Assembly: GCA_019695335.1 (NCBI GenBank)
Contig: JAIBAF010000011.1
Coordinates: forward strand, 13,277-77,276
Length of the DNA: 64,000 nucleotides
Reading direction: 5' to 3'
Source of the DNA: a bacterium
GTDB taxonomy: Bacteria; CLD3; SB21
Both the position numbers and the translations under genes were made by a program. Below the pieces are notes generated by a model. The model was given only the letters and a program-made list of their open reading frames with translations, was not told the DNA's origin and did no database searches. Of this stretch, positions 3,007-29,545 are shown piece after piece; the first letter of the stretch is position 1, and every line of letters starts with the position of its first letter.

Positions 3007-4032
3007 TCAGAACTTAATACCCACCGAAAAGCGATGAGTTGCATCGAGTTGTCCCACGTCCATGTAACCATAATCGAAAGTGACACCTAAATCATCATTA
3101 AATTTATAATCCAACCCACCGCCAAAAGTCAAACCAGCCGTTGCGGCTTTGCTCGTGCGATAATCGCGATTACGTTTTAGGGTTGACGTATAGCCAACAC
3201 GTGCAAAAAACATGTTTTGAAAACCGTATTCGGCACCGAAATTAGTGCGGTTAGCCTGAAAACTATTTATATTTTGTTCCAAAATACCAGTAATAGAATT
3301 TTGTTCGTTACGATATAATTCCATACTAGCGCCAAAATTGACAGCCGCAGGTAACTCAAACGGCTCAGAACCAAACTTTAGAAAGGATTGCTGGCCTGAA
3401 ATAGGATCCGTTGTATTGCGCACTAATCCATCACCATTATATATTGATTGAGGGCCAATATTGGTTGCAGCAAAGCCTAATTTAAGCCCTCGATAACCAG
3501 TATTGTAGGTGAAACCAAAATCAAACGCAAAAGCCGATGCTGAAACTTGGTCAATGGCTGAATTAAGAAACTTCACCGTCAAACCGCCGCTTACACGATC
3601 CGTAATTTGCTTTGAATAAGTAAATCCAAGTGCTAAATCATATGGTGTGTAATTTCCCAAACCTCCGTTCGGATTGGTTTCACTTGTTTTTTCAATTGAC
3701 CCATAGCTTAAATAATTAAAACTCAAACCGAACACACCTGTTTCTCCCATAGGAAAACTGACTGCAGCGTAGTTCGATGTAATACCGGCAAAATGATTCA
3801 AATATGAAAAAGTAAAAGTTGCCCGGTCTGCACTCGATACATTAGCCGGATTCCAATAAATAGCGCTTGCACCGCTGCTATTGGTAAGCCCGGTTGTTCC
3901 TAGTGCGGTCTCACGAGCACCCAATGGAACGTGAAGAAACATAAAACCTGCTTCACCACGTTTTTCTTCACCAGCAAAAACTGATGCAGTCCACAACAAT
4001 AAATATGTTATGGCTATAACTCTTTGTTTCAT
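3007..4032 (-). CDS. Outer-membrane beta-barrel protein, PorV/PorQ-like (T9SS-associated, FadL-like). Family assignment is tentative.
   Basis: Signal peptide, conserved GARETALGTTG motif near the N-terminus, alternating beta-strand pattern, C-terminal ...GIKF ending in Phe. Last gene of an operon with a T9SS cargo protein. RBS AAGGAGA is present. Confidence 0.5.
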   Translation of the reverse strand: MKQRVIAITYLLLWTASVFAGEEKRGEAGFMFLHVPLGARETALGTTGLTNSSGASAIYWNPANVSSADRATFTFSYLNHFAGITSNYAAVSFPMGETGVFGLSFNYLSYGSIEKTSETNPNGGLGNYTPYDLALGFTYSKQITDRVSGGLTVKFLNSAIDQVSASAFAFDFGFTYNTGYRGLKLGFAATNIGPQSIYNGDGLVRNTTDPISGQQSFLKFGSEPFELPAAVNFGASMELYRNEQNSITGILEQNINSFQANRTNFGAEYGFQNMFFARVGYTSTLKRNRDYRTSKAATAGLTFGGGLDYKFNDDLGVTFDYGYMDVGQLDATHRFSVGIKF

Positions 4033-4102: not shown

Positions 4103-7100
4103 TTATTGAATATCCGGACCGTTAACACGAACTTCTTCTTGAATGACTGCAAATTTAACGGTTGTCTTACCGATTCCCGGAGCTTCAATTAGGGCAATGT
4201 ACATGCCGCTTGCGACAAATTTGTTACCCGCATTCTGAAGGTTCCATACCTCGACTGAAGTTTCGCCTGCTGTCGGCGTCGAACGACTATCTAACGGATT
4301 CGTATTGACTCGATTATTGTTAGAAGTTGCATTATGAACAAGGGTTCTAACTAAATCGCCAGAAACCGTAAAGATTTTGATCGTACATTGTCCGGGCAGA
4401 TTGATAAATTTTAATCGCTTATCAAAAAGTTGCGGCTGATAAGAGGAACGCGCATAATATGGATTCGGTACGACCCGAACGTCCTTGAGTTCTTTTTTCA
4501 AAGATTTCTTGTCGGTCATCGTCGGAGCAGCCACAGTAGTAAATCTAAATACATCGTCAACGGCATTTGGCCGAACGTGGAAGAATCTGAATTGATCACT
4601 ACCGGTTCCGGATGCCGACCATCCCGTATTATTTCTTCTAGCCCATGTTGCCATATACATAATTGGCATATTAGCTGTGCTTAGAGCATTGACCATCAAT
4701 TGCGGATCGGACGTAGTTGCATAGGTCTTATCGGAAATGAATAACCATTCCCTTGGACCAGTACCCGCATAGTTATCACCGCTAGAAAAGAATGGCGGCC
4801 AGTATTTGCCATTGACCAAACCATTTGTCACATTGTTTTCCAAGAAACCAATGGCCAGACGGCGTGGATTATCAGGATCTTCTACATCCCAGGCTGAAAG
4901 CGGCACTGTCTTTACAAAATCTTGATAAGCGTACGTAGCCGTAGTATTTATCATGAACGGAACAAATGCAGGCTGCGCAGGAGCTAATTGAGCATTACGC
5001 AGATACCGATGGCCATAAGATAAATTTACATCATTAACATCAAGCGGATCACCATTAGCATCCGTTGAGGCTAATTTAATTAAAATGTTTTTCAGATCTA
5101 CAGAAGGATAGCGATCGTTTTCATTTCCGAAGAAATGTACAGGACGATCCCAGCCGAGGGCTCCACTAAACGCTTCAAGCCCACCGGCATTGGCGCCACC
5201 GGCAAAAGTAAATTGACGCGTACCGGTTGGTATATCCCAGCCGACATGTTCGCCTCCAGGATTTAACCCAGGTGCCGGACCATATACGCCAATGAGCATT
5301 CCGTCGGCTATATTAAATTCTTCATCGCTATGATCGTTATCAGGAATTGCAATCCGCGTATCAAAATACCGTTCGTCGGCTGCAGTATTCGGATCATTAG
5401 TCCTGGTTTGGAAAGGCACTAACAAGTTGGTAGTAGTATCTCTTAATCTATAAGCCATCGTACCATCCGTGTATCCATCAACGGTGTGTAAGGTGAAGAA
5501 TTCAACTTTATACACATGGCCAGTAATTTTAGATGGATCGACTACTTCAACTGTGACGTTCCCATCCCCAGTGCCAGCAGAGTGTTCGACTTCGCCAAGT
5601 GATGCAGCATAGGTTTTTCCAATTAGCGGTTTCATCGGTACGATTGAAACCACATTGGCTGCAGGCGATGTCTCCAACGATATTGGATATCCGCTCGGTT
5701 TGTCAACAGTACCGCCAAACGGCGAAGTAACCTGTTCTTTGGTATCAGCTATATAAGGCTGTGCGTCATATGCCGTGACGCTATAAAAATATACCTGTCC
5801 GTTTGTGAGCCCTTCGTCGCGATAAGAATAATGTAATCCTGTATTGTTACCCACAACAAGATTCTCAGTAATGAGCGTGCCACTTGGATCAATTGTAATA
5901 TTGACCACTGTACCGAACTCGTCTACTTTATCATAATCCGCCAGCATAGCATAAGAGCCAGGAAGACCTGTTAAACTTCTGTAAACACGATAACCTTGAA
6001 AGTCATTAGTAATGTAATCAGCCGTAAAGCCACTGTCGATCTTGATACCCAGAATGTCACCGGCTTTATCGACGGAGTATTCTGAATTGTTCAACCAAGT
6101 AATGACCGCTTCACCATCCAATCCTACAACATTAATTTTCGGAATATCCGGCGGAGCAGGGGCGACAAGCCCAGCTTTAAAACCTTGCTGAATAGCATCG
6201 TCCAAAACAAACAATTGGGCTACAGCTGTTAACCTGTTATTTCCGCCAACGGACTCTTGACTGGTCCCCAGTACAGCTGCCCAAATTTCTTGTGATTCGC
6301 CGGCATCCAATTTAAAAGGTCCTACACAGTGTGCCATCCGCTGATCAGCGCCATCGGCCGCTTGCGCAACGTTCGGGTTGCTGCCTGCACCAGCAGCAGT
6401 CGGATCTCCGCGATAGGCATAATAATCGGATACCCCAACGCCTGTTTTAACCGAACCATCATTAAATTTTCCTTCTAATTGATTATAGCGCTGTTCGTCA
6501 TTGGCCGGTTGAGAACCACTCTTATACGTATTAAACGCAGTTGCTCCCAACCATATTTTGCCGGCCGGTAATGGCGTAGGTACATAAATATTTTGAGCGC
6601 CATTGTAAACCAAAGTCGATGTGTTGCTTGCAAATTTTGACGCAAGAAGTGGTGACACATCGCTGATATTAACAACTGGACCTTGCAAAAAATCAAAGCC
6701 AGTTGCCGCAGGTCTGTCTGCATCAGTACCATTATAGCAGAATCCCAAACCTCTTGATGTATCCACACCAACAATATCATTTGATGCGTTGTCAGAATTT
6801 ACATCCGGATCCATCCAGAGCCCAATATAGCCACCGGTATAATTTTCGTCTGTTTTATTAGTTAAAGTAAATTTCAAATAAACTGCATCATTCAAAGCAC
6901 CTGACGCGTACACAAACGATTCCAATGTAATTTGGATTCCTAAACCTGGGTCTTCCGTATCTTCACGTTCTTGAGTTAAATCAAGATCCAAATCATTGAA
7001 AACTGCCCACGTCTGAGCGTCGGCAATTAATGCAGGATTTCCATTATTATCACGCGGCGCATCGACCGGCCAATTCGTATAATCCGATCCAGACAAAGAG

Positions 7101-7543
7101 CGATCGATTTGATACACTTTAAGATCGGCTGAACCTGGATCTTCTGCTACCAATTGTTCAAATGGAAGTCCTGAATTAGTAATTCGGCCCGGTTGAAATT
7201 CCGAACGGAACTCTGCTTCGGAAACTGCTCTTATTGTATCTTTTTTCAATGCAGCAAACTGAAAACCACCGGCATAAACAATCGTTCGTCCTGATCCGCG
7301 AGGAAATTCTCCTCCTGGAGCTGAATTTGGCGAATCTTGCATATACCGACCGTTGTTTTCCATCACATAAATCCAGTTATTATAGCCTACACGGATAAGA
7401 TCGGAAATGTCTGGTTTTTTTAAACGAGCTTTTAATTTTTCTGAAGGGCCAAGCTTTGCAACGCCATATGACGACCACAAACTTATCGTCAAAATAACTG
7501 TAGCGGCAATAGTCAGCGCCGAAAATAAAACTTTTTTATTCAT
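4103..7543 (-). CDS. Large secreted protein (1146 aa) with a T9SS C-terminal sorting domain; function unknown
   Basis: Signal peptide. C-terminal ~80 aa (CTIKIFTVSGDLVRTL...GMYIALIEAPGIGKTTVKFAVIQ) matches the Por secretion tail. RBS GGAG is present. Confidence 0.7.
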   Translation of the reverse strand: MNKKVLFSALTIAATVILTISLWSSYGVAKLGPSEKLKARLKKPDISDLIRVGYNNWIYVMENNGRYMQDSPNSAPGGEFPRGSGRTIVYAGGFQFAALKKDTIRAVSEAEFRSEFQPGRITNSGLPFEQLVAEDPGSADLKVYQIDRSLSGSDYTNWPVDAPRDNNGNPALIADAQTWAVFNDLDLDLTQEREDTEDPGLGIQITLESFVYASGALNDAVYLKFTLTNKTDENYTGGYIGLWMDPDVNSDNASNDIVGVDTSRGLGFCYNGTDADRPAATGFDFLQGPVVNISDVSPLLASKFASNTSTLVYNGAQNIYVPTPLPAGKIWLGATAFNTYKSGSQPANDEQRYNQLEGKFNDGSVKTGVGVSDYYAYRGDPTAAGAGSNPNVAQAADGADQRMAHCVGPFKLDAGESQEIWAAVLGTSQESVGGNNRLTAVAQLFVLDDAIQQGFKAGLVAPAPPDIPKINVVGLDGEAVITWLNNSEYSVDKAGDILGIKIDSGFTADYITNDFQGYRVYRSLTGLPGSYAMLADYDKVDEFGTVVNITIDPSGTLITENLVVGNNTGLHYSYRDEGLTNGQVYFYSVTAYDAQPYIADTKEQVTSPFGGTVDKPSGYPISLETSPAANVVSIVPMKPLIGKTYAASLGEVEHSAGTGDGNVTVEVVDPSKITGHVYKVEFFTLHTVDGYTDGTMAYRLRDTTTNLLVPFQTRTNDPNTAADERYFDTRIAIPDNDHSDEEFNIADGMLIGVYGPAPGLNPGGEHVGWDIPTGTRQFTFAGGANAGGLEAFSGALGWDRPVHFFGNENDRYPSVDLKNILIKLASTDANGDPLDVNDVNLSYGHRYLRNAQLAPAQPAFVPFMINTTATYAYQDFVKTVPLSAWDVEDPDNPRRLAIGFLENNVTNGLVNGKYWPPFFSSGDNYAGTGPREWLFISDKTYATTSDPQLMVNALSTANMPIMYMATWARRNNTGWSASGTGSDQFRFFHVRPNAVDDVFRFTTVAAPTMTDKKSLKKELKDVRVVPNPYYARSSYQPQLFDKRLKFINLPGQCTIKIFTVSGDLVRTLVHNATSNNNRVNTNPLDSRSTPTAGETSVEVWNLQNAGNKFVASGMYIALIEAPGIGKTTVKFAVIQEEVRVNGPDIQ

Positions 7544-7616: not shown

Positions 7617-10586
7617 TTAGAAATTAAATAGTATTCCTATACGAGCCTGACGTGGCGTATCGTATACAAGACCATCATGGCTTATAAGATAATATTGCTG
7701 TACCTGACGTTCATTCAGCGATCTGCCTGCTGCTGTTCCCAAATATCCATCGTCATCAGCATCGCCGGTAGCAGGCCATACTAGCGCAACATTTTTATGA
7801 TCTAGTAAGTTTAAAACCTGCAGATAAACATTAACATTCATCGTATTGGAGATGAAAACCGTTTTGTCAGCTTTAAGATCTAACCGTACCGTCCACGGCT
7901 GATTCTGTGAATTTCTACGCCCCACTGGTTTACCAGCTGGAACACCATTAATCCCAAACGAATTGATATTCACAGGCGTGTACGGAATACCACTTGCTGC
8001 ATTGAATTGGAAATTGACACCAGCGTTATCAAGAATATGATTTCCACCAATCATGGGGCCTTCATCTTTTCCATTACGAATATCCAAATTGGCATTGAAC
8101 GTATGACGTTGATCGAAATTCAAAGGCGCATTTAGCTTAGTGGTTTGAAATCCTAACCAAGCAGCTTGAAAACCGGTAGCTTGTCCTGAACCGCTTCCAC
8201 GAGCTGATTGTAACGTATAGGCCAAACGTCCTTGAATTTTAGAAGTCCGGCGCATTTCAAAGGCAATGTTAACACCTTGAACAACACCTTCATCATAATT
8301 ATTATACAGCACAAGTCCGTTAGGTTGAGATTGAGTGATTCGTACGTTGACAAGGTTTTTAATGTCTTTATAGTAAGCATTCACGTCAATTGAGATTCGA
8401 TCCGTTAACAATCTTCTGATTCCAACTTCATATTGAGTGCTTTCTTCAGCATGCAAATTCGGGTTACCCACGCTTGCCGAAAAAGGCGGTGAAATTGATT
8501 GGCGTTCAAGAAAATCAGGGCTCACATACAAGGCATTAAGATTGGGTTGCTGGAAGAACTTTCCATAACTCATACGGAATTGCGTTTTTTCAGACACAGG
8601 GAAACTAACGCTCAAACGCGGACTAATCTTATTATCGCTCTTCGAATTAGTATAGTCTTCCGGACCAATTGTTCCGGCCCATAAACGATCAACGCCTACA
8701 TCAAACGTATTATTACCATTGAGATCAGTATACTTACCTACATGATCAGGATTGGCCTGTCCTGTAGGATCGCTGAGATCTTTGACACGTTTCACACCGG
8801 CGTTGAATAAGTCATAACGTAAACCGGCACGAAGTACTAATCCTTCAACTTCCATTTTATTTTGTAAGTAACCTGAGAAGGAGATCGGATGAGTAGCACC
8901 GAGAATTTTGTTCTCAAGGTCATCGCTGTTGACTTTTTTCAATTTCTTGTCAGCTGTCACAGTATACCCAATATTATCATTCGCGCCATGTACTGGATCG
9001 GCTGAAAGTTCGCGAAGATTCAATAAGCGAACCGTATGACGGAAAAAGTCAGCTCCAAACTTTAATTGATTTTGTTTGTTGATCTGATTGACATAATTGG
9101 CTTTCACAGCAATGTATGCGTCTTCGCTACGAGTATAGGTTTGGTTCGGACGATCAGGAAAACGCATAAAGTTATCATTGTAATAAGTCGAGAAGCCAGT
9201 ATTATCAGTCGTTGAGTGATCATAATTGGTAATATTCTTGCCGTAATTATCATCATATACATGGAGCTTATTCGAAAAATAGTTAACGCCTAAATCGGCA
9301 AAACTATTAGCATTCAGTGTATAGGTTGCCACCGAGCCTATATTAATATTACTCAAGTCACGGTGCTGTGTATGATCAGGATTGACCGTATAGGTAAGAA
9401 GAAATGCACGACGGTAATTTCTGGTAAGATTACCATTTAGGTCTAAACGGAGTGAGTTTGGAATAACATCGAAAGATAATTTCGATTGAAAGTTAATTCC
9501 TCGATCACTGTTTACGCCATATCCGCTAGAAGTTTTTGGGCGTGCGCCTTTTTTATACTTAATGTTACCATTAGCATCGGTATCAAAAATGACGGTGTCA
9601 ATATCAGCTTCATTTTCACCGCGTATCCCTTCATTTGAAAAACTATATTTCGGATATCCATACACACTGGGCTCAGCATCCGTTATATCTTTTCCTTCAG
9701 CTGAAACATAAAATTTGATCCTGTTGTTTCCAGGAATTAACTGCCCACCGAATCCACCGCTGTATACATCATATCCGTAATACTCATTTTTGTTGAGGGC
9801 AAACATGGCACGGTCATTGACATATTCAAGACTTCCAGAATAGCGTTGACCGCCAGCTTTAGTCGTCACTTGAATAATACCCGATTGATTACGTCCGTAT
9901 TCGGCATCGAATCCACCTGTGATAACTTGTACTTCTTCAACAGAACCGTTTGGAATTGAAGCATTAGAAACCCCAGTTAACAAATTGTTTTGTTGAAAAC
10001 CATCAATATATACACCTGTTTCACTGGGACGACCACCACGTACAAATACTCCGCCCGTTCCACCGTCAACATTACGGCCGCCATTAGTATAAGTATTTGT
10101 AACAATACCCACACCTAAATTTGCTGCCGATTGAAAGCCACGAATCGGTAGATTCTTGATTTCTTCAGACGAAGTTACCGTCATGGTCATCGTCTGATCT
10201 TTTTGGATCAAAGGACGCTCAGCAACAATGATAACTTCTTCGCCACCAAGCGATTCAGGCGATAATTCAAAATCCAAACGTGTCGTAAAATCGGGAAGTA
10301 CACGAACGTTTTGTTTGGTTACTTTGGTATAACCAATCATGCTCGTACTGATAGAATAAACACCAGCGGGAACGTTAATGATACTAAATTCACCGCTTGC
10401 ATTCGTTGCAGCACCCATCGTCGTGCCGTCAAGAATGATATTCACACCCGGGAGAGCATCGCCGGTTTCTTTGTCTTTCACGATACCGGTTATCTTACCG
10501 GTCGTTCCTGAAAACAAATTAGCCGGAAGAGACAGCAGTCCCAAAGCTACCAATAAGGTCAGCTTTTTAATAGTACTTCTGAACAT
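7617..10586 (-). CDS. TonB-dependent outer-membrane receptor with an N-terminal carboxypeptidase-regulatory-like domain
   Basis: Signal peptide MFRSTIKKLTLLVALGLLS (start moved to the internal ATG preceded by AGGAGGA). CarboxypepD_reg-like segment (TGKITGIVKDKETGDALPGVNIILDG...), then a plug region and a long barrel ending in ...RIGILFNF. Confidence 0.75.
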   Translation of the reverse strand: MFRSTIKKLTLLVALGLLSLPANLFSGTTGKITGIVKDKETGDALPGVNIILDGTTMGAATNASGEFSIINVPAGVYSISTSMIGYTKVTKQNVRVLPDFTTRLDFELSPESLGGEEVIIVAERPLIQKDQTMTMTVTSSEEIKNLPIRGFQSAANLGVGIVTNTYTNGGRNVDGGTGGVFVRGGRPSETGVYIDGFQQNNLLTGVSNASIPNGSVEEVQVITGGFDAEYGRNQSGIIQVTTKAGGQRYSGSLEYVNDRAMFALNKNEYYGYDVYSGGFGGQLIPGNNRIKFYVSAEGKDITDAEPSVYGYPKYSFSNEGIRGENEADIDTVIFDTDANGNIKYKKGARPKTSSGYGVNSDRGINFQSKLSFDVIPNSLRLDLNGNLTRNYRRAFLLTYTVNPDHTQHRDLSNINIGSVATYTLNANSFADLGVNYFSNKLHVYDDNYGKNITNYDHSTTDNTGFSTYYNDNFMRFPDRPNQTYTRSEDAYIAVKANYVNQINKQNQLKFGADFFRHTVRLLNLRELSADPVHGANDNIGYTVTADKKLKKVNSDDLENKILGATHPISFSGYLQNKMEVEGLVLRAGLRYDLFNAGVKRVKDLSDPTGQANPDHVGKYTDLNGNNTFDVGVDRLWAGTIGPEDYTNSKSDNKISPRLSVSFPVSEKTQFRMSYGKFFQQPNLNALYVSPDFLERQSISPPFSASVGNPNLHAEESTQYEVGIRRLLTDRISIDVNAYYKDIKNLVNVRITQSQPNGLVLYNNYDEGVVQGVNIAFEMRRTSKIQGRLAYTLQSARGSGSGQATGFQAAWLGFQTTKLNAPLNFDQRHTFNANLDIRNGKDEGPMIGGNHILDNAGVNFQFNAASGIPYTPVNINSFGINGVPAGKPVGRRNSQNQPWTVRLDLKADKTVFISNTMNVNVYLQVLNLLDHKNVALVWPATGDADDDGYLGTAAGRSLNERQVQQYYLISHDGLVYDTPRQARIGILFNF

Positions 10587-10947
10587 AATGTTCCTCCTTC
10601 TGTTAAGAAAAGAAGCGTTAATTAGGTACGAAAACAAAATCGTAACAATTCTAACCATACACCTCCTTGGTAAGTTGAACGTTTTGATGTTTTAAGGGAG
10701 CAATAAACTTTCGTCGAAATACAGAACTTTAAAAAGATAAGATCGGAAAACAGATGTGTTATAAATTAGATGCACTAAGCACGTAGCAAGCTAACTAATT
10801 GAAATTCTTCTTACTATTACCTAAAAGGGTAAATATTTTCATAATTACCCATTGGGGTTATACTAAGATTTTTTGGTTAGTAAAAATTAAGGCTAGCTGT
10901 AAAGGCTTGTTGGATAAGGATTGACGAGGAGTTTAAATAAAAATAAA

Positions 10948-18409: not shown

Positions 18410-18452
18410 AACAAAAAAAGCCGTTTACGGGAATGTCCGTAAACGGCTTTGA
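18410..18452 (-). terminator. Rho-independent terminator after lipoprotein gene copy 1
   Basis: GCCGTTTACGG gaatgt CCGTAAACGGC with a T-run on the minus strand. Confidence 0.55.
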
Positions 18453-18472: not shown

Positions 18473-19078
18473 TCAGGATCGCCTCTTCCCAAATTGTGTT
18501 TTCAGACTCTCGATCTTCTGGGACAACGATGCCAACCCGGCCGGTGTCGCCACATTCGCATTAAATCCTGAATCCAGAATCTTTACTTCCGCCAAACTCT
18601 GTGTAAACTCTCCCAGCACAAAATGATTCGACGCTTTCAAAACCCGTAAGTCAGAAACATCCAATCCAAGACCATACGTAAACTCCCAATCCGAATCCAA
18701 CGCCAAAGCCACGCCGATCTCCGTGTTCGCCGCCGCATAACTCTTCCCCGCACTCAGCACAAACGCCCATCCGGCAAACAAATCAGCCGGTGCATTCGTT
18801 TTATCCGCCCCGTCACTGAACGCATTCGACGCGGCCGTGATATTGCTCAACTGAATGTAGCACCACCCTATTGCACTGTAGATTTCAGCCTTGTCAGGAT
18901 CCGCATCCCGAGCGTCTTCAAACGCTGCCAAGGCTTCCGTGTAATCTCCCGACGCGAACAACGTCTCGCCCTCGGTTATCAGTTTATCGTAATCCCCTTT
19001 ACCGGAACCGCCACCACACGAAAGCATTCCCAATGCTACCGTCATAGCCATTAATGTAAATATCTTCCTCGATCTCAT
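18473..19078 (-). CDS. Small TPR-like lipoprotein, copy 1
   Basis: Lipobox MLSCGGGSG and a helical TPR-like body. Essentially identical to 22497..23108. Confidence 0.6.
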   Translation of the reverse strand: MRSRKIFTLMAMTVALGMLSCGGGSGKGDYDKLITEGETLFASGDYTEALAAFEDARDADPDKAEIYSAIGWCYIQLSNITAASNAFSDGADKTNAPADLFAGWAFVLSAGKSYAAANTEIGVALALDSDWEFTYGLGLDVSDLRVLKASNHFVLGEFTQSLAEVKILDSGFNANVATPAGLASLSQKIESLKTQFGKRRS

Positions 19079-19995
19079 AATTCTACTCCTTATTTGATCA
19101 ACATCATTTTTTTCGTTTTGACAAACGCGCCGGCTTCGACGCGGTATAAATACACCCCGCTCGCCACCTGCTGGCCCAGTTCATTCTTCCCATCCCAGCT
19201 GATGCGGTAACTGCCGGCCAATTGAAATCCGCTATACAGCGTCTTCACGCGCTGACCCAATAAATTATATACCACTAACTTCAGAGTACCGTCCTGTGGA
19301 AGATCAAACGCGATCGTTGTGCTCGGGTTAAATGGATTCGGATAGTTTTGTTTCAATGTAAATTCTTTCGGCACAACATTATTACCGGTAAATGTAGCAT
19401 CGAGCCCGACCTTAAACTCTCCCAAAGTTTTGACTAAGGCCCGCACTTGATGCTTCTCCGCATACACTTGTGTACGCAAAGGCGTCCACGTATCACCGGT
19501 CTTCTGATAAATAAACACCTTCCCTTCATCTGCGAAATTACCTTGGGCATAGGTCATCGTGAGCACCAGTTCCTCGGCGTAGTCGCTCTCCGGACCGAAT
19601 TTCACAACCGTTTCACTTTCATCCGAGGCTGTCATATAGGTCTCGGTTTTAACCGAATGTTTGCTCATCTGCAAGGTCCCTTGACCGTTGGGGGTGGTGA
19701 CCGAGGCGATCTGTCCCGGCTTGGCCAGCGTGACGCCATAGGTTCTTGTCTGGATCGAATCTCTTCCACCGCTCGTAGTTGCCTTGATCCGGAAATTATA
19801 AGTTCCGCTGACTGAGAACACCGACGCACCACGGTATACTTTATTGGTACCGTTCACCTGAGCCATCGCGATCGATGTAGTATCGGTTAAACCGGTCACC
19901 CACATCTTGACCGTCGGCACGCCGCTGAACGCTGTGTCGGTCACGACCACCATGTCAAAATATTTCGACAACGCCGGATTCTGTAAAATCGACGT
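18485..19995. repeat. Direct repeat copy 1 (~1.5 kb, at least 99% identical to 22515..24025). It spans the lipoprotein gene plus the 3' ~900 nt of the BNR cargo gene.
   Basis: Pairwise comparison at a constant 4030-bp offset: identical for ~1350 bp, then five SNPs (19843, 19888, 19939-19941, 19974-19976) before the copies diverge. Confidence 0.85.
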
Positions 19996-22164
19996 ACCCA
20001 ACGGTGCGGGCGATGAATTTCCGAAATACTTCAACGACCTAGCTAATATTTTACCCATATTCGAATTTTCGAATAAGCGATAAATCTGAGCGCTTATAAA
20101 TACTCCTCGCGCGCCATGCCCTGTGTTATCAACATTTACTCCTCCGACATTAACGCTATCGGGATCATAATTAGGTCCGTAATAAAATGCTTTGTGTACG
20201 TTGCTGTTCAACAAGGTCAACTTATCACGTGTTGAGCCTCCTAACGCAATTGATGTCGTAATTCCATCACCTATTTTATTGGCGGTAAATCCTTTGAAAC
20301 TACTCGACGATGTATAGTTCCCGTTAAATCCGACTCCAAGTTTGTTTTGAAAAAGCGGATGCGATGAATGCAATTCTACTAAATCCGGTCCTGCAGCAAA
20401 TAAATGAACTCCACGGTCACATAGTAAGCTTAATGTATCGAGGAACGCCGTTGTTGTTGTTATTGCTGATGATGCAGACCATATAATAACTCGTCTTTTT
20501 GTTTTTTCAATGGCCTCGACAGGCAAACTTCGTCCCATAGTCACTAAATCCCAAAGATATGTGGTATAACCAGAATCTAATAAATGGCTTTGCATAAAAG
20601 TACCATAGAAAGCGATATCAACCATTACAAAAACGTCCGCCCGATCAATATTAAATTCATAATTAGAATTCAAAGATGGTTGTGCAATGGACTGCCTTAC
20701 ATAAGGCGCTTCGGAAATCACTACAATTGAATCATAAAAATTGAGTGATGAAAGATTTGTAAAAGTATTCCCGGATAGCGTATCCGCTGGAAATAGAGTA
20801 CCATTGCCATATCGACCGTACAATAAAACTGTAGAATTGACGTCATCCTGATAGACGTTGACCACGCTTACGCCAATGGAACCCATCGTTCCATTTAGTG
20901 ATAATTGGAAATTAACGTCAGTTGTACCACCTGCATTGACGTTGACATTTCCGATAACCTGATTAACACCAGCAGATTGAGCTTTAAGAGAATAAGTGCC
21001 GGGTGATAAATACATGGTGTACTTTCCGTCAGTATTATTGACGATACAACTGTCCGAACCTCCGACGACTACTACCGACGCATGCCCAACCGGCAAACCT
21101 CCGGAAGTCGTTGTAATCGTACCGGATATTTTGCCATAGCCGGAAGGATTGGTATTGAGTTTATATAAATTGGTGCCAAGCGCATCCTGATTGAGTGCAT
21201 AGACATCATGACTCGTAGCTGCTTTAATCATCCAGATGGCAGGATACGTAAATAGGTTTCCAAGTTGCTGCCAACTCTTTCCTTTATCAGCGCTTCTGTA
21301 AATACCTACTTCGAGGGACGTTCGGGAACCAAATACACCGATAAATAAATCCCCATTGACCGGATCCTGATCCAAACCCCACATGAAAATTCCATACAAT
21401 CCCATATCATTCCATGTCACGCCGCCGTCAGTACTTCGAAAGAATGAATAAGCAGCATCCAGTTGAATAGCCGCGTACACCATATTTGGCGTCGACTTAT
21501 CCCAAACGATTTTCGGGCATTCAGAGAAATAAGGATTCCCTCCTTTGACCAATGTCCAAGTCAAACCGTAATCTGTCGACCTGGCAATCTTAGTATCACC
21601 GGCACCTATGACGATTACGTTGGGATGAAAAGGATCAGCTGCAATGGTACAAACGTTACCATAAGGAACAACCGAACGCACGTGCCACGTACGGCCCGTA
21701 TCCGCGCTCAGCCAAAATTCACTCGTGTAAAAATCGACAAAATACATCGTGTCGGGATGAACAATATTATAGTCAAATGATTCACCGTCAGTCGAGCCTT
21801 CTTCTTTAACTTGTTCCCAATCAAATCCTCCATTTGTACTACGAAGAATACCATTATTTCCTACCATAACGATAATGGAAGTATCCAACGGACTCACGCG
21901 AATAGTACGAATGCCCGGACCTTGCGAAATGGATCCCCGTGTACTCCAGGTCGAACCCGCATCATAACTCACTTTGAATATTTTCTCCACGTTGTCGTGA
22001 ATGTACACGACATTATTATTAAGTGGACTCAACACAAATGCATAACCGTCGTGAACAGTCGGATACGTTTTCGTCCACGTCAGGTTTGTCTGTGAGTGTG
22101 CTGAAGTAGCAATGACTAGCATTTCTACAAAAAAAGTCCAAAACACCGTACGTAAAAAATTCAT
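19090..22164 (-). CDS. T9SS-sorted surface protein, paralog A: N-terminal BNR/Asp-box beta-propeller, CarboxypepD_reg-like domain, central domain of unknown function, and Por secretion tail
   Basis: Signal peptide. Six S-x-D-x-G-x-T/S-W Asp-box motifs (SYDAGSTWS, STNGGFDWE, SADTGRTWH, STDYGLTWT, STDGGVTWN, SADKGKSWQ). C-terminal KQNYPNPFNPSTTIAFDLP...VYLYRVEAG...KKMMLIK matches the T9SS CTD. Confidence 0.7.
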   Translation of the reverse strand: MNFLRTVFWTFFVEMLVIATSAHSQTNLTWTKTYPTVHDGYAFVLSPLNNNVVYIHDNVEKIFKVSYDAGSTWSTRGSISQGPGIRTIRVSPLDTSIIVMVGNNGILRSTNGGFDWEQVKEEGSTDGESFDYNIVHPDTMYFVDFYTSEFWLSADTGRTWHVRSVVPYGNVCTIAADPFHPNVIVIGAGDTKIARSTDYGLTWTLVKGGNPYFSECPKIVWDKSTPNMVYAAIQLDAAYSFFRSTDGGVTWNDMGLYGIFMWGLDQDPVNGDLFIGVFGSRTSLEVGIYRSADKGKSWQQLGNLFTYPAIWMIKAATSHDVYALNQDALGTNLYKLNTNPSGYGKISGTITTTSGGLPVGHASVVVVGGSDSCIVNNTDGKYTMYLSPGTYSLKAQSAGVNQVIGNVNVNAGGTTDVNFQLSLNGTMGSIGVSVVNVYQDDVNSTVLLYGRYGNGTLFPADTLSGNTFTNLSSLNFYDSIVVISEAPYVRQSIAQPSLNSNYEFNIDRADVFVMVDIAFYGTFMQSHLLDSGYTTYLWDLVTMGRSLPVEAIEKTKRRVIIWSASSAITTTTAFLDTLSLLCDRGVHLFAAGPDLVELHSSHPLFQNKLGVGFNGNYTSSSSFKGFTANKIGDGITTSIALGGSTRDKLTLLNSNVHKAFYYGPNYDPDSVNVGGVNVDNTGHGARGVFISAQIYRLFENSNMGKILARSLKYFGNSSPAPLGTSILQNPALSKYFDMVVVTDTAFSGVPTVKMWVTGLTDTTSIAMAQVNGTNKVYRGASVFSVSGTYNFRIKATTSGGRDSIQTRTYGVTLAKPGQIASVTTPNGQGTLQMSKHSVKTETYMTASDESETVVKFGPESDYAEELVLTMTYAQGNFADEGKVFIYQKTGDTWTPLRTQVYAEKHQVRALVKTLGEFKVGLDATFTGNNVVPKEFTLKQNYPNPFNPSTTIAFDLPQDGTLKLVVYNLLGQRVKTLYSGFQLAGSYRISWDGKNELGQQVASGVYLYRVEAGAFVKTKKMMLIK

Positions 22165-22439: not shown

Positions 22440-22476
22440 TAAAAAAACCCTTTGAAAATCCAATCTCAAAGGGTTC
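22440..22476 (-). terminator. Rho-independent terminator after lipoprotein gene copy 2
   Basis: CCCTTTGA...TCAAAGGG hairpin with a T-run on the minus strand. Confidence 0.5.
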
Positions 22477-22496: not shown

Positions 22497-23108
22497 TTAA
22501 TTCGGTAACTTGAGCTTCCCAAATTGTGTTTTCAGACTCTCGATCTTCTGGGACAACGATGCCAACCCGGCCGGTGTCGCCACATTCGCATTAAATCCTG
22601 AATCCAGAATCTTTACTTCCGCCAAACTCTGTGTAAACTCTCCCAGCACAAAATGATTCGACGCTTTCAAAACCCGTAAGTCAGAAACATCCAATCCAAG
22701 ACCATACGTAAACTCCCAATCCGAATCCAACGCCAAAGCCACGCCGATCTCCGTGTTCGCCGCCGCATAACTCTTCCCCGCACTCAGCACAAACGCCCAT
22801 CCGGCAAACAAATCAGCCGGTGCATTCGTTTTATCCGCCCCGTCACTGAACGCATTCGACGCGGCCGTGATATTGCTCAACTGAATGTAGCACCACCCTA
22901 TTGCACTGTAGATTTCAGCCTTGTCAGGATCCGCATCCCGAGCGTCTTCAAACGCTGCCAAGGCTTCCGTGTAATCTCCCGACGCGAACAACGTCTCGCC
23001 CTCGGTTATCAGTTTATCGTAATCCCCTTTACCGGAACCGCCACCACACGAAAGCATTCCCAATGCTACCGTCATAGCCATTAATGTAAATATCTTCCTC
23101 GATCTCAT
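22497..23108 (-). CDS. Small TPR-like lipoprotein, copy 2
   Basis: Identical to copy 1 except for the last few C-terminal residues. Confidence 0.6.
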   Translation of the reverse strand: MRSRKIFTLMAMTVALGMLSCGGGSGKGDYDKLITEGETLFASGDYTEALAAFEDARDADPDKAEIYSAIGWCYIQLSNITAASNAFSDGADKTNAPADLFAGWAFVLSAGKSYAAANTEIGVALALDSDWEFTYGLGLDVSDLRVLKASNHFVLGEFTQSLAEVKILDSGFNANVATPAGLASLSQKIESLKTQFGKLKLPN

Positions 23109-24025
23109 AATTCTACTCCTTATTTGATCAACATCATTTTTTTCGTTTTGACAAACGCGCCGGCTTCGACGCGGTATAAATACACCCCGCTCGCCACCTG
23201 CTGGCCCAGTTCATTCTTCCCATCCCAGCTGATGCGGTAACTGCCGGCCAATTGAAATCCGCTATACAGCGTCTTCACGCGCTGACCCAATAAATTATAT
23301 ACCACTAACTTCAGAGTACCGTCCTGTGGAAGATCAAACGCGATCGTTGTGCTCGGGTTAAATGGATTCGGATAGTTTTGTTTCAATGTAAATTCTTTCG
23401 GCACAACATTATTACCGGTAAATGTAGCATCGAGCCCGACCTTAAACTCTCCCAAAGTTTTGACTAAGGCCCGCACTTGATGCTTCTCCGCATACACTTG
23501 TGTACGCAAAGGCGTCCACGTATCACCGGTCTTCTGATAAATAAACACCTTCCCTTCATCTGCGAAATTACCTTGGGCATAGGTCATCGTGAGCACCAGT
23601 TCCTCGGCGTAGTCGCTCTCCGGACCGAATTTCACAACCGTTTCACTTTCATCCGAGGCTGTCATATAGGTCTCGGTTTTAACCGAATGTTTGCTCATCT
23701 GCAAGGTCCCTTGACCGTTGGGGGTGGTGACCGAGGCGATCTGTCCCGGCTTGGCCAGCGTGACGCCATAGGTTCTTGTCTGGATCGAATCTCTTCCACC
23801 GCTCGTAGTTGCCTTGATCCGGAAATTATAAGTTCCGCTGACTGAGAACACCGACGCACCACGATATACTTTATTGGTACCGTTCACCTGAGCCATCGCG
23901 ATCGATGTAGTATCGGTCAAACCGGTCACCCACATCTTGACCGTCGGCACGCCGCTGAGCACTGTGTCGGTCACGACCACCATGTCAAAATATTTCGACA
24001 ACGCCGGATTCTGCAGAATCGACGT
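22515..24025. repeat. Direct repeat copy 2 (partner of 18485..19995)
   Basis: Same alignment as copy 1, at a 4030-bp offset. Confidence 0.85.
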
Positions 24026-26526
24026 CGCAATATGCGGTGCGTATTGTTCGCCCAACGGAAGCGCAAATGTAGTACTGTTGGCTTCATTCGAATTGGCCGA
24101 TGTGCCGCTGGCATTCACAGCTTTGACTACATAATAATATGTCGTACTGGCTGTTAAATTCGAATCGGTTAATGTTGTTTCATTCGCTTCAACCGTATCG
24201 ATATTGGCGTAACCGCTGCCGCTCGTCAATGAACGGGAAATAATAAATCCCGTTTCATTATCAGCATTATCCGTCCAGCTCAGTTGGATCTTTGACGCCG
24301 AAATGGTTGTCGTCATTAGATTGGATGGCGCGATAGGCGCATTAAGTGAAAGTGTCCTTTTAAAGATTTTGCCTATAACAGATGACGCAACACCGGACAA
24401 ATCAAAACCCAACAACAAAGCCCAGCCGTTGCTGCCCGTATTGTCGACAAACGCTCCACCAATATTAACGGAGTCTCCAGCAACCGAACCATAATAAAAT
24501 GCTTTATGACCTGAAGCAGAAAGAAGGTTGATTTTGTCACGCGAAGTGGAACTGCTTGCCGAAAAATTAATCCCGTTCCCAATGGGGCTGCTTGTAAAAC
24601 CGTTGATGGCTGTACTATTGGTGTAATTTCCTGTAAATCCCAATTTCAATGTATTCTTAAAAAATGAATGTGCCGAATCCAATTCTACCAGATTTTGTCC
24701 GGCAACAATAATATCTATCCCCTCATTACAGAACATCGCCAAACTATCCAGGAACTCCTGAGGCATGGATGAAAGGTGCCTACGAGTCAACCACATTACT
24801 GTTTTGAGATTGGTTTTATTAATTGCGCTCAATGAAATAGAACGCCCGCGCTCATCAACGTTCCAATTAAATGACGAAAAACCCGAATCCGATAAAGGGG
24901 TTTGGTATGTTGGTGCGTACGTAGCTCCGCCAACACCAAAATTAGGATCAGGATCATTGATAATAAGAACGTCAGCGCGTTTAACATTTATCGTATAATC
25001 ATTATTAAGCGCAAGCGGTGATACAGAGGTCGTTATATAGGGAACCGTACTTGGAACAACAACAATAGAATCATAAAAATTTAGCGAAGAAAGATTGGTA
25101 AAGGCATTGCCCGAAAGCGTATCGACCGGAAATGGAGCGCCGTTACCATATCGGCCATACAATAACGCGATGTAATCCAGATCATCCTGGTAAATGTTAC
25201 TTACACTCACTCCAATAGACCCCAAAGTTCCGCTTAATGGTAATTGAAAATCGACTACCGTATTTCCTGTAGCAACAATATTCACACTTCCAATGATTTG
25301 ATTAACACCTGCCGATTGGGCTTTGAGGGAATACGTGCCGGGTGATAGATACATCGTGTATGTGCCATCAACATTATTGACGATACAGCTATCCGAACCT
25401 CCGACTACAACGATGGAAGCGTGCTCTACCGGTAATCCACCCGTAACCGTAGTGATGGTACCTGAAACTTTACCGTAACCGGAAGGATCCGTATTAAGTT
25501 TATAAAGATGAACATTACCAAATGCGTTAGGATCATCTGCATTCAAAGCATAAACGTCATGATTCGAAGCAGTTTTGATCATCCAAACATTTGGATAGCA
25601 AAAGTATTTCCAAGCTGCTGCCAGCTTTTACCTTTATCGGCGCTTCTAAAGATACCAAGATTGAATTCATGCTGTGCGCTTCCTGTTGAACCAAAAACGC
25701 CAATGAACAGATCCCCATTATCCGGATCCTGATCCAGCCCCCACATAAATATTCCATATAATCCCATATCGTTCCATGTCACACCGCCATCCGTACTTCG
25801 ATAAAACGAGAAATTGACATCTTGTTGAATAGCCGCGTATACCATATTCGGTGTGGACTTATCCCAGACAATTTTCGGACACTCCGAAAAATATTCATTA
25901 CCGGTTTTAACTAATGTCCAGGTTTCGCCATAATCGGTTGAACGGGCAATACGCGTGTCCCCTGATCCGACAACAATGACATTCGGATGAAACGGATCGG
26001 CCGCAATCGTACAGACGTTGCCATACGGTACGACCGAACGTACTTGCCACGTACGTCCTGTATCCGCACTGAGCCAAAATTCGCTTGTGTAAAAATCAAC
26101 AAAATACATCGTATCCGGATGAGCAAAATTATAATCAATCGATTCACCGTCAATCGAACCCTCCGGCTGAACATTATCCCAGTTATACCCGCCATTCGTG
26201 CTGCGAAGAATACCCGAATTACCAACCATCACGATGATGGACGTATCCAACGGACTCACGCGTATTGTACGAATACCCGGACCCGGTGTAATGGAACCGC
26301 GCTTACCCCACGTCACGCCGCCGTTATAACTTACTTTAAATGCTCCCTCTACGTTATCATGAATATAAACGACATTATTATTAACGGGGCTTATGACAAA
26401 GGCATAACCGTTATGGACAGTCGGATATGCTTGCGTCCACGTGAGGTTTGTCTGAGCTCGGGCTGATGCAACAAGCACCAGCGCGGCTACAATAAAGCAC
26501 CCAAACGTTGTTCGTAAAAAATTCAT
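23120..26526 (-). pseudogene. T9SS-sorted BNR-propeller surface protein, paralog B. Domain order is BNR propeller, CPD-reg-like, central domain, an extra FN3 domain, then the shared C-terminal module plus CTD. Split by a -1 frameshift into ORFs 25579..26526 and 23120..25582.
   Basis: The N-terminal 315-aa ORF ends ...SWQQLGNTFAIQMFG*. The -1 frame continues ...YPNVWMIKTASNHDVY, matching paralog A (...LGNLFTYPAIWMIKAATSHDVY). A one-nucleotide deletion relative to copy A is inferred near 25596-25600. Confidence 0.55.
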
Positions 26527-26538
26527 AACGTTCCTCCT

Positions 26539-28371
26539 TTATTTGATGAACAAAAGCTTTTTTGTTTGAACAGTCTTACCGGCTATCATCCTGTAAAAAT
26601 ACAGTCCGGACGCGACCGTCTGCCCTTTGGCATTTCTGCCATCCCACGTTACTGCGTATTGACCTGCGTCTTTTCTAGAATTTTCAAGCGTCCGGATCTC
26701 CTGTCCCATCGCATTATATATTTTTATCGTTACCGATTGATTATTGTCTGGAACATCGTATTTGATCCGTGTATCACCATTGAATGGGTTCGGATAATTC
26801 TGATACAAAGCATAGTTCTCCGGCTCACGTATCGATTCATCAAATTGAATCTGAAACACCGTATCAATCATCACATATTCCCGCATATCCCAACCTTTGA
26901 CATCCGCCCACGCCTTGAAAACAGCACGGTACACCAACTGGATATGAATATTCGCCTGAGAGTTCTTGCCTACCTTGAACACCATGCTGCTGGTATCTGT
27001 CTTTCCTGCCGGAATCCGGCTATCATAAATAATCTCGGTAGCAAACCAATTTGTCGTTGGCGAATCGCCGGTATCCTCATTGCGTGTAAATAACGTAAAT
27101 CCTTTTCCCGGAAGGCCGGAAAAATTACCTTCCGCAGGACTGCCCACACCGCCGTAAAACGGAATGGTGTCCCCATCGAGTTGTGTCAACATTTGACCGT
27201 TATTATCCGCTTTGACTACCAGGAACATATTTCTGAAACTCACTCCGGTCGGTAATTTGTGACCCGCGCCGACGTTGGTCACCAGCGCTTTGAGCGACAA
27301 TTGATTTTGCGTCAACGTCTTTTCCACGGCCAATCGTGCCGATCGATTCATAAATGCCGGCGTCGTCCCTTTAAAAAACTGGCTGTACACTCTGTTCGTA
27401 TCACGTACCACCGCATCCGCGGCCGCAATTCCACCGGCGAAAATCGAATCACTGTTGGGGCGCATGTGACAATCTTGGCATTGAATACCTTGGGCCGCAA
27501 ACGAACTCGCCGCCCATGAGTCGTACGTATCATCGACAATCACTCCGTAGCGGTTTGCATATTGATGGCAACCGGAACAAAACGCACTTTTTTCATAAAT
27601 CGGGTTATACGTACCGCCCATCCAGTCCGTGGTCACATCGTCAAATTGTCCATAATTAATATCACGTGCATGCGGCATAGGCCGTTTCACAAAAATCGAT
27701 CCGTTCACTCCGGTAGAATAATTCACGTCCACGCTGTCAATCTTATGGCAGAAATCGCAGAACACACCGGCCGTGTCGATGCTGTTGGAATTCCATACAT
27801 CGTTTAATTCCGTATTTCCCGGCGTACGCAGCGCAGCCGACGGTGCATGGCAATCGCCGCAATCACCGCCTTCATTCGGAAAATTCAATTTAAACCCGGG
27901 ATATACTCCCGTATTACCGTTGACGTCCGTGCCGTTGTAGATTTGTTTCAGCATCGAATTCGTGGCCGCCCGCGCATGTTTGGATTCACTCCATTGATTA
28001 AATAAACCACCGTGACAATTCCGGCAAAACGTCGGATTTTGAAAAACAAAATCAGCATTATCTTCTTCAGGCAATGGTTCCATTTTGATAGTATCGCTGG
28101 TACCGACTACGAACAACCGCCGTTTATTGAACCATCCGCGCTTACCGGCTGCAAGTGTTACAAACGAACCGATGGCTTTATCCGTAAAGAGTGTAAATTC
28201 ACCTTGAGCATTGGTCAAAACGAAATCATTGCTTCCGGGAAACCGAACACGCGCGTCCGGCACCGGCATCAAGTCTTCTGAACTCACTACGACTCCTGAT
28301 ACAGGCTGACCTGATTGTGTCAGTAACACAAAGGAACAAAAAAGAATTATTGACAATATGGCCTTAAGCAT
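26539..28371 (-). CDS. Pentaheme c-type cytochrome with an N-terminal CarboxypepD_reg-like domain and a T9SS C-terminal sorting domain
   Basis: Signal peptide. Five CxxCH motifs: CRNCH (aa 116-120), CGDCH (171-175), CDFCH (205-209), CSGCH (265-269), CQDCH (298-302). C-terminus YALYQNYPNPFNGDTRIKYDVP...GLYFYRMIAGKTVQTKKLLFIK matches the Por secretion tail. Confidence 0.8.
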   Translation of the reverse strand: MLKAILSIILFCSFVLLTQSGQPVSGVVVSSEDLMPVPDARVRFPGSNDFVLTNAQGEFTLFTDKAIGSFVTLAAGKRGWFNKRRLFVVGTSDTIKMEPLPEEDNADFVFQNPTFCRNCHGGLFNQWSESKHARAATNSMLKQIYNGTDVNGNTGVYPGFKLNFPNEGGDCGDCHAPSAALRTPGNTELNDVWNSNSIDTAGVFCDFCHKIDSVDVNYSTGVNGSIFVKRPMPHARDINYGQFDDVTTDWMGGTYNPIYEKSAFCSGCHQYANRYGVIVDDTYDSWAASSFAAQGIQCQDCHMRPNSDSIFAGGIAAADAVVRDTNRVYSQFFKGTTPAFMNRSARLAVEKTLTQNQLSLKALVTNVGAGHKLPTGVSFRNMFLVVKADNNGQMLTQLDGDTIPFYGGVGSPAEGNFSGLPGKGFTLFTRNEDTGDSPTTNWFATEIIYDSRIPAGKTDTSSMVFKVGKNSQANIHIQLVYRAVFKAWADVKGWDMREYVMIDTVFQIQFDESIREPENYALYQNYPNPFNGDTRIKYDVPDNNQSVTIKIYNAMGQEIRTLENSRKDAGQYAVTWDGRNAKGQTVASGLYFYRMIAGKTVQTKKLLFIK

Positions 28372-29098
28372 TATTAATAATTATTGACTTTAATTGTAAA
28401 AACCCGTGAAACTATAACACTTCTAACACTCAAACAACCTGCATCATAATGTGGTTCACCATTAAGCAGAACTATCCAAACGACACTAAAACAATCCGTT
28501 GGCTTTATCTATAAATATTAGCGCAAGGAACAAACAGACAAAAATACTACTATCAAGGCGATTCTAACCATGAAATTACCTAGCTAAATGGAACTGACAA
28601 ACTATGACGCAATAGAGGGTGCGGTCAATGTAAGGATCGAACATAGTAAGCGCAAGGGAATTTTAAGGCTGTTTTGTTTTGGCTAACCACTGACGAACCC
28701 TTGCATCCGATGGATTGAGGGTTAAGGCTTTCGATAGATAGTCTCTAGCTATTAAACGAATCTTACCAAGTCCAAAATAAGCGTCGTAAAGGTCGGATTA
28801 ATTTGAAAGCACTTGAAAACATGCTTCTTCAGCTTCACTAGGCCTTCGATTTCTCTAAAAACCGGATACGCTAAAAGGAGCTTCCCTCTACAATCGCGCG
28901 TGTGCTTGGTGCCATGGCCTGGACGGAGAAGGATTGACGGCAAAGGCGAATCGTTGGATATAAAACCTTCACAAACTCTGACCATCATCGAACAAATCCG
29001 GCAGGGCGGTTACCGTATGCCATTCTTTCAAACCGATATCATTTCAGACTAGGAACTGGCCGATATAGCCGCTTTACATTATTGCTTTACGAAGCCGC

Positions 29099-29545
29099 TC
29101 AAAGCAGCCGTGAGATGCTGAAGGTTGTTCCGGTTTGAGGAAAGTAAACAACACCGACAACGTCCATTGTCTGTCCGTTAAATGAAACCGTAGGTTTATC
29201 GATATTGGCCGTCACAAAATAAATGCAACGCGTCGACCAATAGCTCTTGCCATCCACCGTCACATCGGCAACATATTCCGCTTGTTCATTCCTCTTGTAG
29301 TTGTATACGACACTTTTACCAACCACATCCATGACGGTTTTGTCGTTTTTCTGAAAGAAAATGCGGATAGGAATGGACGATGTGAACGTCACGTCTTTGT
29401 AGAAACCTTCAGGAGCTTGGTTACTGCAACTGATGTCAATAGTATTACTGCCAAAAGTCAGCGTGTACCGTTGCTGCTGAGCCGAAATATTCGTGACAGC
29501 TAAAAAAGCCAACATAACAATCCCGATTCCACATTTCATAGGCAT
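29099..29545 (-). CDS. Small secreted hypothetical protein
   Basis: 148-aa ORF with a signal peptide (MPMKCGIGIVMLAFLAVTNISAQ). No recognisable domain. Confidence 0.45.
   Translation of the reverse strand: MPMKCGIGIVMLAFLAVTNISAQQQRYTLTFGSNTIDISCSNQAPEGFYKDVTFTSSIPIRIFFQKNDKTVMDVVGKSVVYNYKRNEQAEYVADVTVDGKSYWSTRCIYFVTANIDKPTVSFNGQTMDVVGVVYFPQTGTTFSISRLL

Follow-up and report, generated by a model that had tools for sequence, protein, structure and literature searches.

The PHC family, proposed for cable bacteria, groups c552, ExtKL, and Gsu2801, of which the c552 of Thermochromatium tepidum has no function assigned to it (PMC11976967). ExtKL is described as a periplasmic pentaheme cytochrome (PMC6148476), and a preliminary report ties this selenoprotein to selenite reduction (PMC5877670). 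PHC proteins show a structural link to an archaeal cytochrome nanowire (PMC11976967), and the family has been implicated, without proof, in extracellular electron transfer (PMC11976967, PMC6148476, PMC5877670). We identified a member of this family in a 64,000-nucleotide stretch of contig JAIBAF010000011.1 (assembly GCA_019695335.1), the whole of which was analyzed and is referred to here as the window. The gene encodes a pentaheme c-type cytochrome that ends in a type IX secretion system (T9SS) sorting tail, and the gene immediately downstream encodes a propeller protein that carries such a tail as well.

Most of what is understood of extracellular electron transfer comes from Proteobacteria and Desulfobacterota, whose surface cytochromes either are lipoproteins or belong to porin complexes. 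We know of no explanation of how cytochromes are exposed in Bacteroidota-group bacteria, though these are common in sediments, sludge, and bioelectrodes, and to our knowledge the known cargo of T9SS consists of proteases, glycanases, adhesins, and S-layer proteins. The cytochrome gene in the window is organized as follows, where CTD denotes the C-terminal sorting domain, ORF an open reading frame, and pLDDT the predicted local distance difference test score:

26539..28371, minus strand: pentaheme c-type cytochrome gene (PHC / c552 / ExtKL-type fold plus T9SS type A CTD), an intact 610-aa ORF with an ATG start
28309..28371, minus strand: predicted Sec signal peptide, residues 1 to ~21, a hydrophobic N-terminus by eye (MLKAILSIILFCSFVLLTQSG), with residues 2-17 modelled as helix
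28072..28308, minus strand: CarboxypepD_reg / transthyretin-like beta-sandwich, residues ~22-100, the N-terminal domain
27352..28035, minus strand: five-heme domain, residues ~113-340, with the CxxCH motifs covering 27466-28026
26836..27351, minus strand: Ig-like beta-sandwich of the PHC fold, residues ~341-512, with the AGH371KLPTG motif (pLDDT 83-95; aligned to 5ZE8)
26542..26808, minus strand: T9SS type A CTD, residues ~522-610, with TIGR04183 / Por_Secre_tail matches

The original prediction, which was made from the DNA letters alone and gave no strand, had described a 610-aa ORF with five CxxCH motifs here, and both the ORF and its architecture (predicted signal peptide, CarboxypepD_reg-like domain, five hemes, T9SS type A CTD) were borne out. 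The motifs begin at C116, C171, C205, C265, and C298, and all five are invariant across 26 homologues (34-89% identity); by chance, ~0.001 such motifs would be expected per protein. The only cysteine outside them is C12, within the predicted signal peptide, whose n-, h-, and c-regions look typical by eye. An exact-sequence look-up of the 610-aa protein returned no match, and its closest orthologue elsewhere is 89% identical.

On the heme part, Pfam yields only short generic cytochrome matches, the top one being Cytochrome_C554 (35.6 bits). The NCBIfam ExtKL model (NF040886) aligns to residues 115-390, and the sole cytochrome among solved structures matched by sequence is the penta-heme c552 of T. 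tepidum (5ZE8, E 9e-8). Because the ExtKL model and 5ZE8 align through them, residues ~110-510 constitute a single two-domain fold that is already known, in which an Ig-like domain comes after a five-heme domain, as in the PHC family. The 5ZE8 alignment includes a GH..PTG..FRN motif situated inside what had been taken for an uncharacterised ~220-aa domain; that stretch is actually the end of the heme domain together with the Ig-like domain of the 5ZE8 fold, and it bears His371 of the AGHKLPTG motif, which is conserved in 100% of 69 family sequences. The heme core is a member of a known family without an established function for any member.

The T. tepidum c552 and the window cytochrome have in common the order of their five CxxCH motifs, an Ig-like domain placed after the heme domain, and the SKH and GH..PTG..FRN motifs, at 19-21% identity. 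Unlike the window protein, c552 has neither the N-terminal CarboxypepD_reg domain nor the T9SS tail; it was isolated in soluble form. The same pentaheme core occurs in ExtKL of Geobacter sulfurreducens, which is described as periplasmic, contains selenocysteine, and is clustered with a porin, a rhodanese, and further cytochromes, whereas the window cytochrome has a BNR propeller partner and a T9SS tail. Orthology to ExtKL was rejected: the window protein scores 56.5 bits against an equivalog cut-off of 250 and has no in-frame UGA/selenocysteine and no ExtI-like porin or rhodanese neighbor.

Other multiheme identities were also rejected. NrfA likewise carries five hemes, but the Cytochrom_C552 match reaches only 14.5 bits against a cut-off of 24.1, and all five motifs of the window protein are CxxCH and none CxxCK, the latter occurring as first motif in some PHC relatives. 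The fold of MtrC/OmcA differs as well (PF22113, 21.9 bits vs 30; TIGR03507, 17.6 vs 209); the window protein has no lipobox and is not a lipoprotein, and it has no MtrAB-type partners, that is, neither an adjoining porin nor a periplasmic cytochrome. What it has in common with MtrC/OmcA and with the Mtr/Pcc/Ext conduits is the proposed site of action, on the outside of a diderm cell. Among the best structural matches of the cytochrome there is no NrfA, octaheme, MtrC/OmcA, or nanowire structure, and an octaheme identity was likewise set aside. Of the folds that had been proposed for comparison (NrfA, octaheme, or OmcA/MtrC), the protein has none; its fold is of the two-domain 5ZE8 type, and its hemes do not sit in a NrfA-like enzyme.

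The tail, originally called a textbook Por secretion C-terminal domain, deserves that description. The last ~85 residues of the protein score 41.4 bits against TIGR04183 (cut-off 23) and 35.2 bits against Pfam Por_Secre_tail (PF18962; cut-off 27), and the strings that had been quoted for it are found at residues 525-531 (NYPNPFN), 590-595 (LYFYRM), and 604-610 (KKLLFIK). It lies at the extreme C-terminus, ends in the typical K-x-x-x-x-K motif, and has key positions that are invariant in 26 homologues. In the predicted structure it folds as a small beta-sandwich resembling the solved CTDs of mirolase (8qb1), PorZ, and PorU, and it is 48% identical to the tail of a neighboring non-cytochrome cargo protein. 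A predicted Sec signal and a C-terminal beta-sandwich of ~85 residues matching TIGR04183/PF18962 are features shared with T9SS type A cargo such as gingipains and mirolase, as is the presence in the same genome of a PorV/PorQ-family gene:

3007..4032, minus strand: PorV/PorQ-family outer-membrane protein, a T9SS component family (NF033709, 196 bits vs 90; Pfam PorV, 30.5 vs 27)

Because the cytochrome has a real CTD and the window also encodes a PorV/PorQ-family protein and three more tail-bearing proteins, export to the cell surface by T9SS is predicted to be likely. A bona fide T9SS tail on a cytochrome offers Bacteroidota-group bacteria a concrete, testable export route. Alternatively, the protein could be a periplasmic cytochrome like c552 and ExtKL, its CTD being an inert Ig/FlgD-like fold with no role in secretion. 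Pfam FlgD_ig does score 52.6 bits on the same residues, above Por_Secre_tail, the known family members are periplasmic, and ~90% of the family has no CTD. However, the tail passes the dedicated T9SS models, matches solved CTDs, is exactly C-terminal with the expected lysine ending, and recurs on neighboring non-cytochrome cargo in a genome with a PorV/PorQ-family gene, and a FlgD domain on a cytochrome would serve this organism no evident purpose. We consider this alternative improbable.

The gene that starts 12 nt past the cytochrome stop encodes a BNR/Sortilin-Vps10-type propeller protein, now in two parts:

25579..26526, minus strand: N-terminal part of the partner, a BNR/Sortilin-type propeller (Sortilin-Vps10, 59 bits; BNR; NF045728, 118.7 bits), ending in a frameshift
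23120..25582, minus strand: remainder of the partner (CarboxypepD_reg-like, fn3, and T9SS CTD by Pfam; TIGR04183, 37.8 bits)

This partner, which carries a T9SS CTD of its own, went unmentioned in the original prediction of a cell-surface redox protein, and it is conserved. The family was searched exhaustively using HMMER with residues 100-512 of the cytochrome against cluster representatives, of which 1979 were recovered at E<=1e-3 (843 at E<=1e-10). Among the best 150, exactly five motifs are present in 124, a T9SS tail in 9, and a fused BNR propeller in 3 (P0447 partial). We then compared 86 distinct family loci from genomes and metagenomes. Loci L001, L018, L054, and L068 came from a contig scan with a generic CTD peptide pattern, which returned mostly unrelated T9SS cargo and was no taxonomic survey.

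Judged by a BNR-only hidden Markov model, an adjacent same-strand propeller gene or a fusion is found at 36 of the 86 loci, and at 20 of the 39 loci with >=1 kb on both flanks. Upstream placement of the partner accounts for 17 cases and downstream placement for 18. The background of this model is 23 hits in 1157 kb of unrelated loci, or ~1 per 50 kb. It was used in place of a count from neighbor clustering (47 loci), which was dropped as inflated by single linkage via shared CTDs. In one relative (L081, 63% identical) the pairing is the same as in the window, while in another (L083, 47% identical) the order is reversed and the partner stop overlaps the cytochrome start. The two proteins also occur as one: in an Acidobacteriota metagenome-assembled genome (MAG), L001/P0258 is a single 1791-aa protein consisting of a double BNR propeller, a CarboxypepD_reg domain, and a PHC core. 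Further fused 50%-identity clusters are P0259 (65% identical) and P0466, with P0447 a partial case. A large FG-GAP repeat protein occupies the partner position in twelve further loci. These observations establish that a PHC cytochrome and a BNR/Sortilin-type seven-bladed propeller form a conserved two-gene module across many phyla. The pairing and its occasional fusion are the first genomic clue to the function of the PHC family (~840 clusters at E<=1e-10, none assigned).

Secreted multiheme cytochromes are linked to propellers elsewhere. The DFE_0448-0465 island of Desulfovibrio ferrophilus encodes secreted multiheme cytochromes with conserved 6-/7-bladed propeller proteins of unassigned role (PMC8322314), an operon of ANME-partner sulfate reducers likewise links multiheme cytochromes and beta-propeller proteins (PMC5539420), and some propeller proteins of these islands were found in the extracellular proteome (PMC8322314, PMC5539420). 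Because of these islands, the propeller-cytochrome theme has a precedent in an electron-transfer setting. The islands differ from the window module in that their cytochromes have 16 to 26 hemes and no T9SS, and their propellers can be set beside the BNR partner by description only. The pairing links the PHC family to the unexplained propeller proteins of other cytochrome islands.

Two variants of the arrangement were seen. In L018 (10369-12969), an 866-aa Marinimicrobia protein has a YVTN/lactonase-type propeller fused to a PHC core and lacks a T9SS tail; models for hydrazine synthase beta and for lactonase-type NosZ match this propeller weakly. A sub-family in which we count six CxxCH motifs (P0031-type; L091, L094, L095, L097, L098, and L102, with five in the N-terminally truncated L095 ORF) has a constant downstream TPR protein of ~538 aa, ~100 nt off, in place of the propeller.

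On balance, it is probable that the locus encodes a T9SS-exported surface redox module with a propeller partner. In this reading, which draws on sequence and predicted structure, the PHC-family cytochrome would be exported by Sec and loaded with heme in the periplasm, its type A CTD would be recognized by T9SS, and it would cross the outer membrane as a folded holo-protein to be anchored on the cell surface or released. The propeller protein, which has a sorting tail of the same kind, and a small TPR lipoprotein would be co-transcribed with it. The cytochrome and propeller would interact physically as a two-component extracytoplasmic redox module acting at the surface of the window bacterium, with the cytochrome carrying electrons and the propeller binding or facing a putative substrate.

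Several observations weigh against this reading. Both family members that have been studied are reported to be soluble or periplasmic (c552, 5ZE8; ExtKL, PMC6148476). No core T9SS gene (porK-N, sov) was found within the 64-kb window, the only stretch examined, and no porin, periplasmic cytochrome, or quinol oxidase adjoins the cytochrome in it. A 1-nt deletion relative to a paralogue (~25570-25610) splits the adjoining propeller gene into ORFs of 315 and 820 aa that overlap by 4 nt, and the only intact propeller copy is the second one, 4.4 kb away; the frameshift marks a pseudogene or else stems from a sequencing error. In the CTD-bearing clade, the propeller neighbor is absent from three of the six loci examined, and in L101 (482-4669) and L157 (941-5122) the propeller has a CTD and the adjoining cytochrome does not. 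The mismatch in these two loci is awkward for a shared compartment unless both proteins travel together.

The surface placement given in the original prediction is likely, with the genuine tail, the PorV/PorQ-family gene, and the three further CTD proteins in its favor. No evidence here bears out the role it had assigned, an outer-surface electron conduit: beyond the genes missing around the window cytochrome, no porin, further cytochrome, or quinol oxidase recurs in the 86 related loci, and a complete respiratory conduit is likewise unsupported. Apart from the cytochrome itself, no ORF in the window bears a CxxCH motif.

The heme chemistry of the family bears on whether the cytochrome is a relay at all. 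Among 69 aligned members, the first motif is CxxCH in 48, CxxCK in 11, and CxxCM in 9, while motifs 2-5 are invariant. In NrfA, CxxCK is the defining mark of the catalytic heme. The CxxCK form occurs in L164, L161, L160, L155, L145, L146, L110, L156, L139, L147, and L116, and the CxxCM form in L120, L107, L109, L115, L114, L119, L112, L121, and L167. The altered motif suggests that heme 1 is special, and possibly catalytic, in some members of the PHC family. Only three histidines outside the motifs are conserved in the family for five hemes (H132, H331, and H371). H132 and H371 are kept in the window cytochrome, and H331, a histidine in 97% of the 69 members, is Gln in this protein and its nearest relatives. 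Because motif 1 varies, conserved distal histidines number only three, and H331 is replaced, there is a hint that not all hemes are ordinary bis-His relays.

It is accordingly conceivable, although rather unlikely, that the exported protein is an enzyme and not a relay, in which one heme (likeliest heme 1, or the one that His331 normally caps) is open or unusual in its coordination and oxidizes or reduces an extracellular substrate that the propeller holds, such as a chalcogen oxyanion, sulfur species, peroxide, or polymer. Besides the variable first motif, the shortage of distal histidines, and the His331 replacement in the window sub-clade, this possibility gains from the preliminary link of ExtKL to selenite reduction (PMC5877670) and from the lack of electron-conduit genes nearby. 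The partner also resembles GH74 propellers, and its relatives pass the NCBIfam model 'F510_1955 family glycosylhydrolase', on which the partner itself scores; however, GH74 likeness is generic for seven-bladed propellers, and WD40 proteins score equally. The window cytochrome, moreover, has an ordinary CxxCH at heme 1, and no PHC member has a known catalytic activity.

The surroundings of the module are rearranged. The genes and remnants on either side of the cytochrome-propeller pair are:

22497..23108, minus strand: 203-aa TPR lipoprotein, last gene of the unit (TPR Pfam matches; lipobox LSC read from the sequence)
22445-22476: strong terminator hairpin, after the 203-aa TPR lipoprotein gene
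19090..22164, minus strand: intact 1024-aa partner paralogue (seven-bladed BNR propeller, CarboxypepD_reg, CTD)
18473..19078, minus strand: second copy of the TPR lipoprotein gene, with a terminator at 18417-18450
28859-29110, plus strand: upstream remnant, the C-terminus of a cbb3-type cytochrome c (tblastn with L086 genes)
28669-28845, minus strand: upstream remnant, the C-terminus of a 690-aa TPR protein (tblastn with L086 genes)

The unit runs from the cytochrome through the propeller protein to the TPR lipoprotein, with no terminator until after the TPR gene; sigma-70 promoter matches in the window were not above those in shuffled controls. The TPR lipoprotein is not put forward as a partner of the cytochrome, since in L010 its homologue accompanies the partner's non-propeller portion and no cytochrome is present there. 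The propeller and TPR pair occurs in tandem (18473-22164 and 22497-26526), and the copies are 99.6% identical over the 3' 1.5 kb and 75% identical over the 5' 1.5 kb, a pattern that suggests recent gene conversion or assembly collapse. The two upstream remnants (28669-29110) are 91% identical over 47 aa to the cbb3-type cytochrome c and 40% identical over 99 aa to the TPR protein. In the closest relative (GuaA 97% identical) both corresponding genes are intact and the site is without a PHC gene; the cytochrome module thus occupies a rearranged, variable spot, with the cytochrome ORF itself intact.

Such a spot raises the question of whether the module is an accessory island decaying in this genome, leaving the cytochrome with little or no current function. 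The frameshifted partner gene, the gene remnants, the different gene content of the closest relative, and the tandem duplication with its near-identical 3' halves are all in keeping with decay. In contrast, the intact cytochrome retains all family-invariant residues except H331, a change common to its sub-clade, and it has an 89% identical orthologue elsewhere; an intact partner copy lies 4.4 kb downstream, and the frameshift may be a sequencing error. Decay is, in our view, a slim prospect.

The closest relatives of the host by GuaA are 74-97% identical, and one of them, 76% identical and with the same local gene order, is an uncultured Bacteroidota. An FCB/Bacteroidota-group host, in line with the FCB bacterium that had been proposed, is supported, with the Bacteroidota label coming from this one syntenic relative. 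The window gave no Rfam match, for rRNA or anything else.

Across the family, the T9SS tail is the exception. It is present on 9 of the 86 cytochromes, in three well-separated similarity groups (the window clade, L132, and L054, a very distant KSB1 protein), and the CTD share of the PHC family is ~6-10%. In about a dozen of 75 relatives a lipobox was seen, and signal anchors occur in others. Because other relatives are held by these lipoprotein signals or signal anchors, the T9SS tail is a minority state and one of several ways of tethering in the family, and judging from its distribution it may have been gained more than once. Variable anchoring of this kind fits an envelope-tethered role for PHC proteins. 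Among tail-less members, the C-termini of L114, L115, L119, L121, L127, L139, L147, L156, and L167 share ...YLPL[VIL]xR, which looks like another sorting or anchoring tag.

That the exported cytochrome polymerizes into an extracellular filament, or nanowire, is highly improbable. It carries two extra globular domains, and type A CTD cargo of T9SS is, as is well established, usually anchored or released as monomers. The idea stems from small PHC proteins and c552, which are reported to have their heme arrangement and elements of secondary structure in common with the archaeal nanowire AvECN (PMC11976967).

CxxCH-rich proteins with T9SS CTDs, for which a survey had been proposed, were seen at 9 of the 86 PHC loci and, by chance, in one unrelated protein. 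The latter (L068, 7511-10282) is 923 aa long and has nine CxxCH motifs, MtrC/MtrF domain II/IV above cut-off, PKD, and a T9SS tail. Because of this protein, the pairing of T9SS with multiheme cytochromes extends beyond the PHC family, which suggests that the T9SS route for multiheme cytochromes is general. We propose only tentatively, from gene content and domain architecture, that a PHC cytochrome with a BNR (or other) propeller is a widespread, unrecognized two-component extracellular redox machine that may be placed on the surface by T9SS in FCB bacteria. If this is correct, T9SS would be a third way to place multiheme cytochromes outside a diderm cell, besides lipoprotein/type II secretion export and porin-cytochrome complexes.

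The original remark that the cytochrome-T9SS pairing is little characterized agrees with our literature search, which found no paper pairing T9SS, or type IX secretion, with multiheme cytochromes; in the eight papers found to mention type IX secretion along with extracellular electron transfer, the former is not among the title or abstract terms. A sludge MAG survey predicts extracellular multi-heme proteins in Bacteroidota and leaves their export route unaddressed (PMC11495043). Databases already record the combination: at NCBI, relatives go by 'T9SS type A sorting domain-containing protein' or by 'multiheme c-type cytochrome', and JGI names one relative 'Secretion system C-terminal sorting domain/Cytochrome c554'. 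What is new here is the cytochrome-propeller module, while the PHC fold and the database-recorded domain combination were already known.

Three further genes in the window were noted. A 1146-aa ORF (4103-7543) that precedes the PorV/PorQ-family gene has no Pfam or NCBIfam match and may be T9SS-related; a SusC/TonB-type receptor gene (7617-10658) also precedes the PorV/PorQ-family gene. A 1423-aa protein (56960-61231) that combines a CARDB domain and five Lamin Tail Domains with a T9SS-type tail is predicted to be a large surface cargo.

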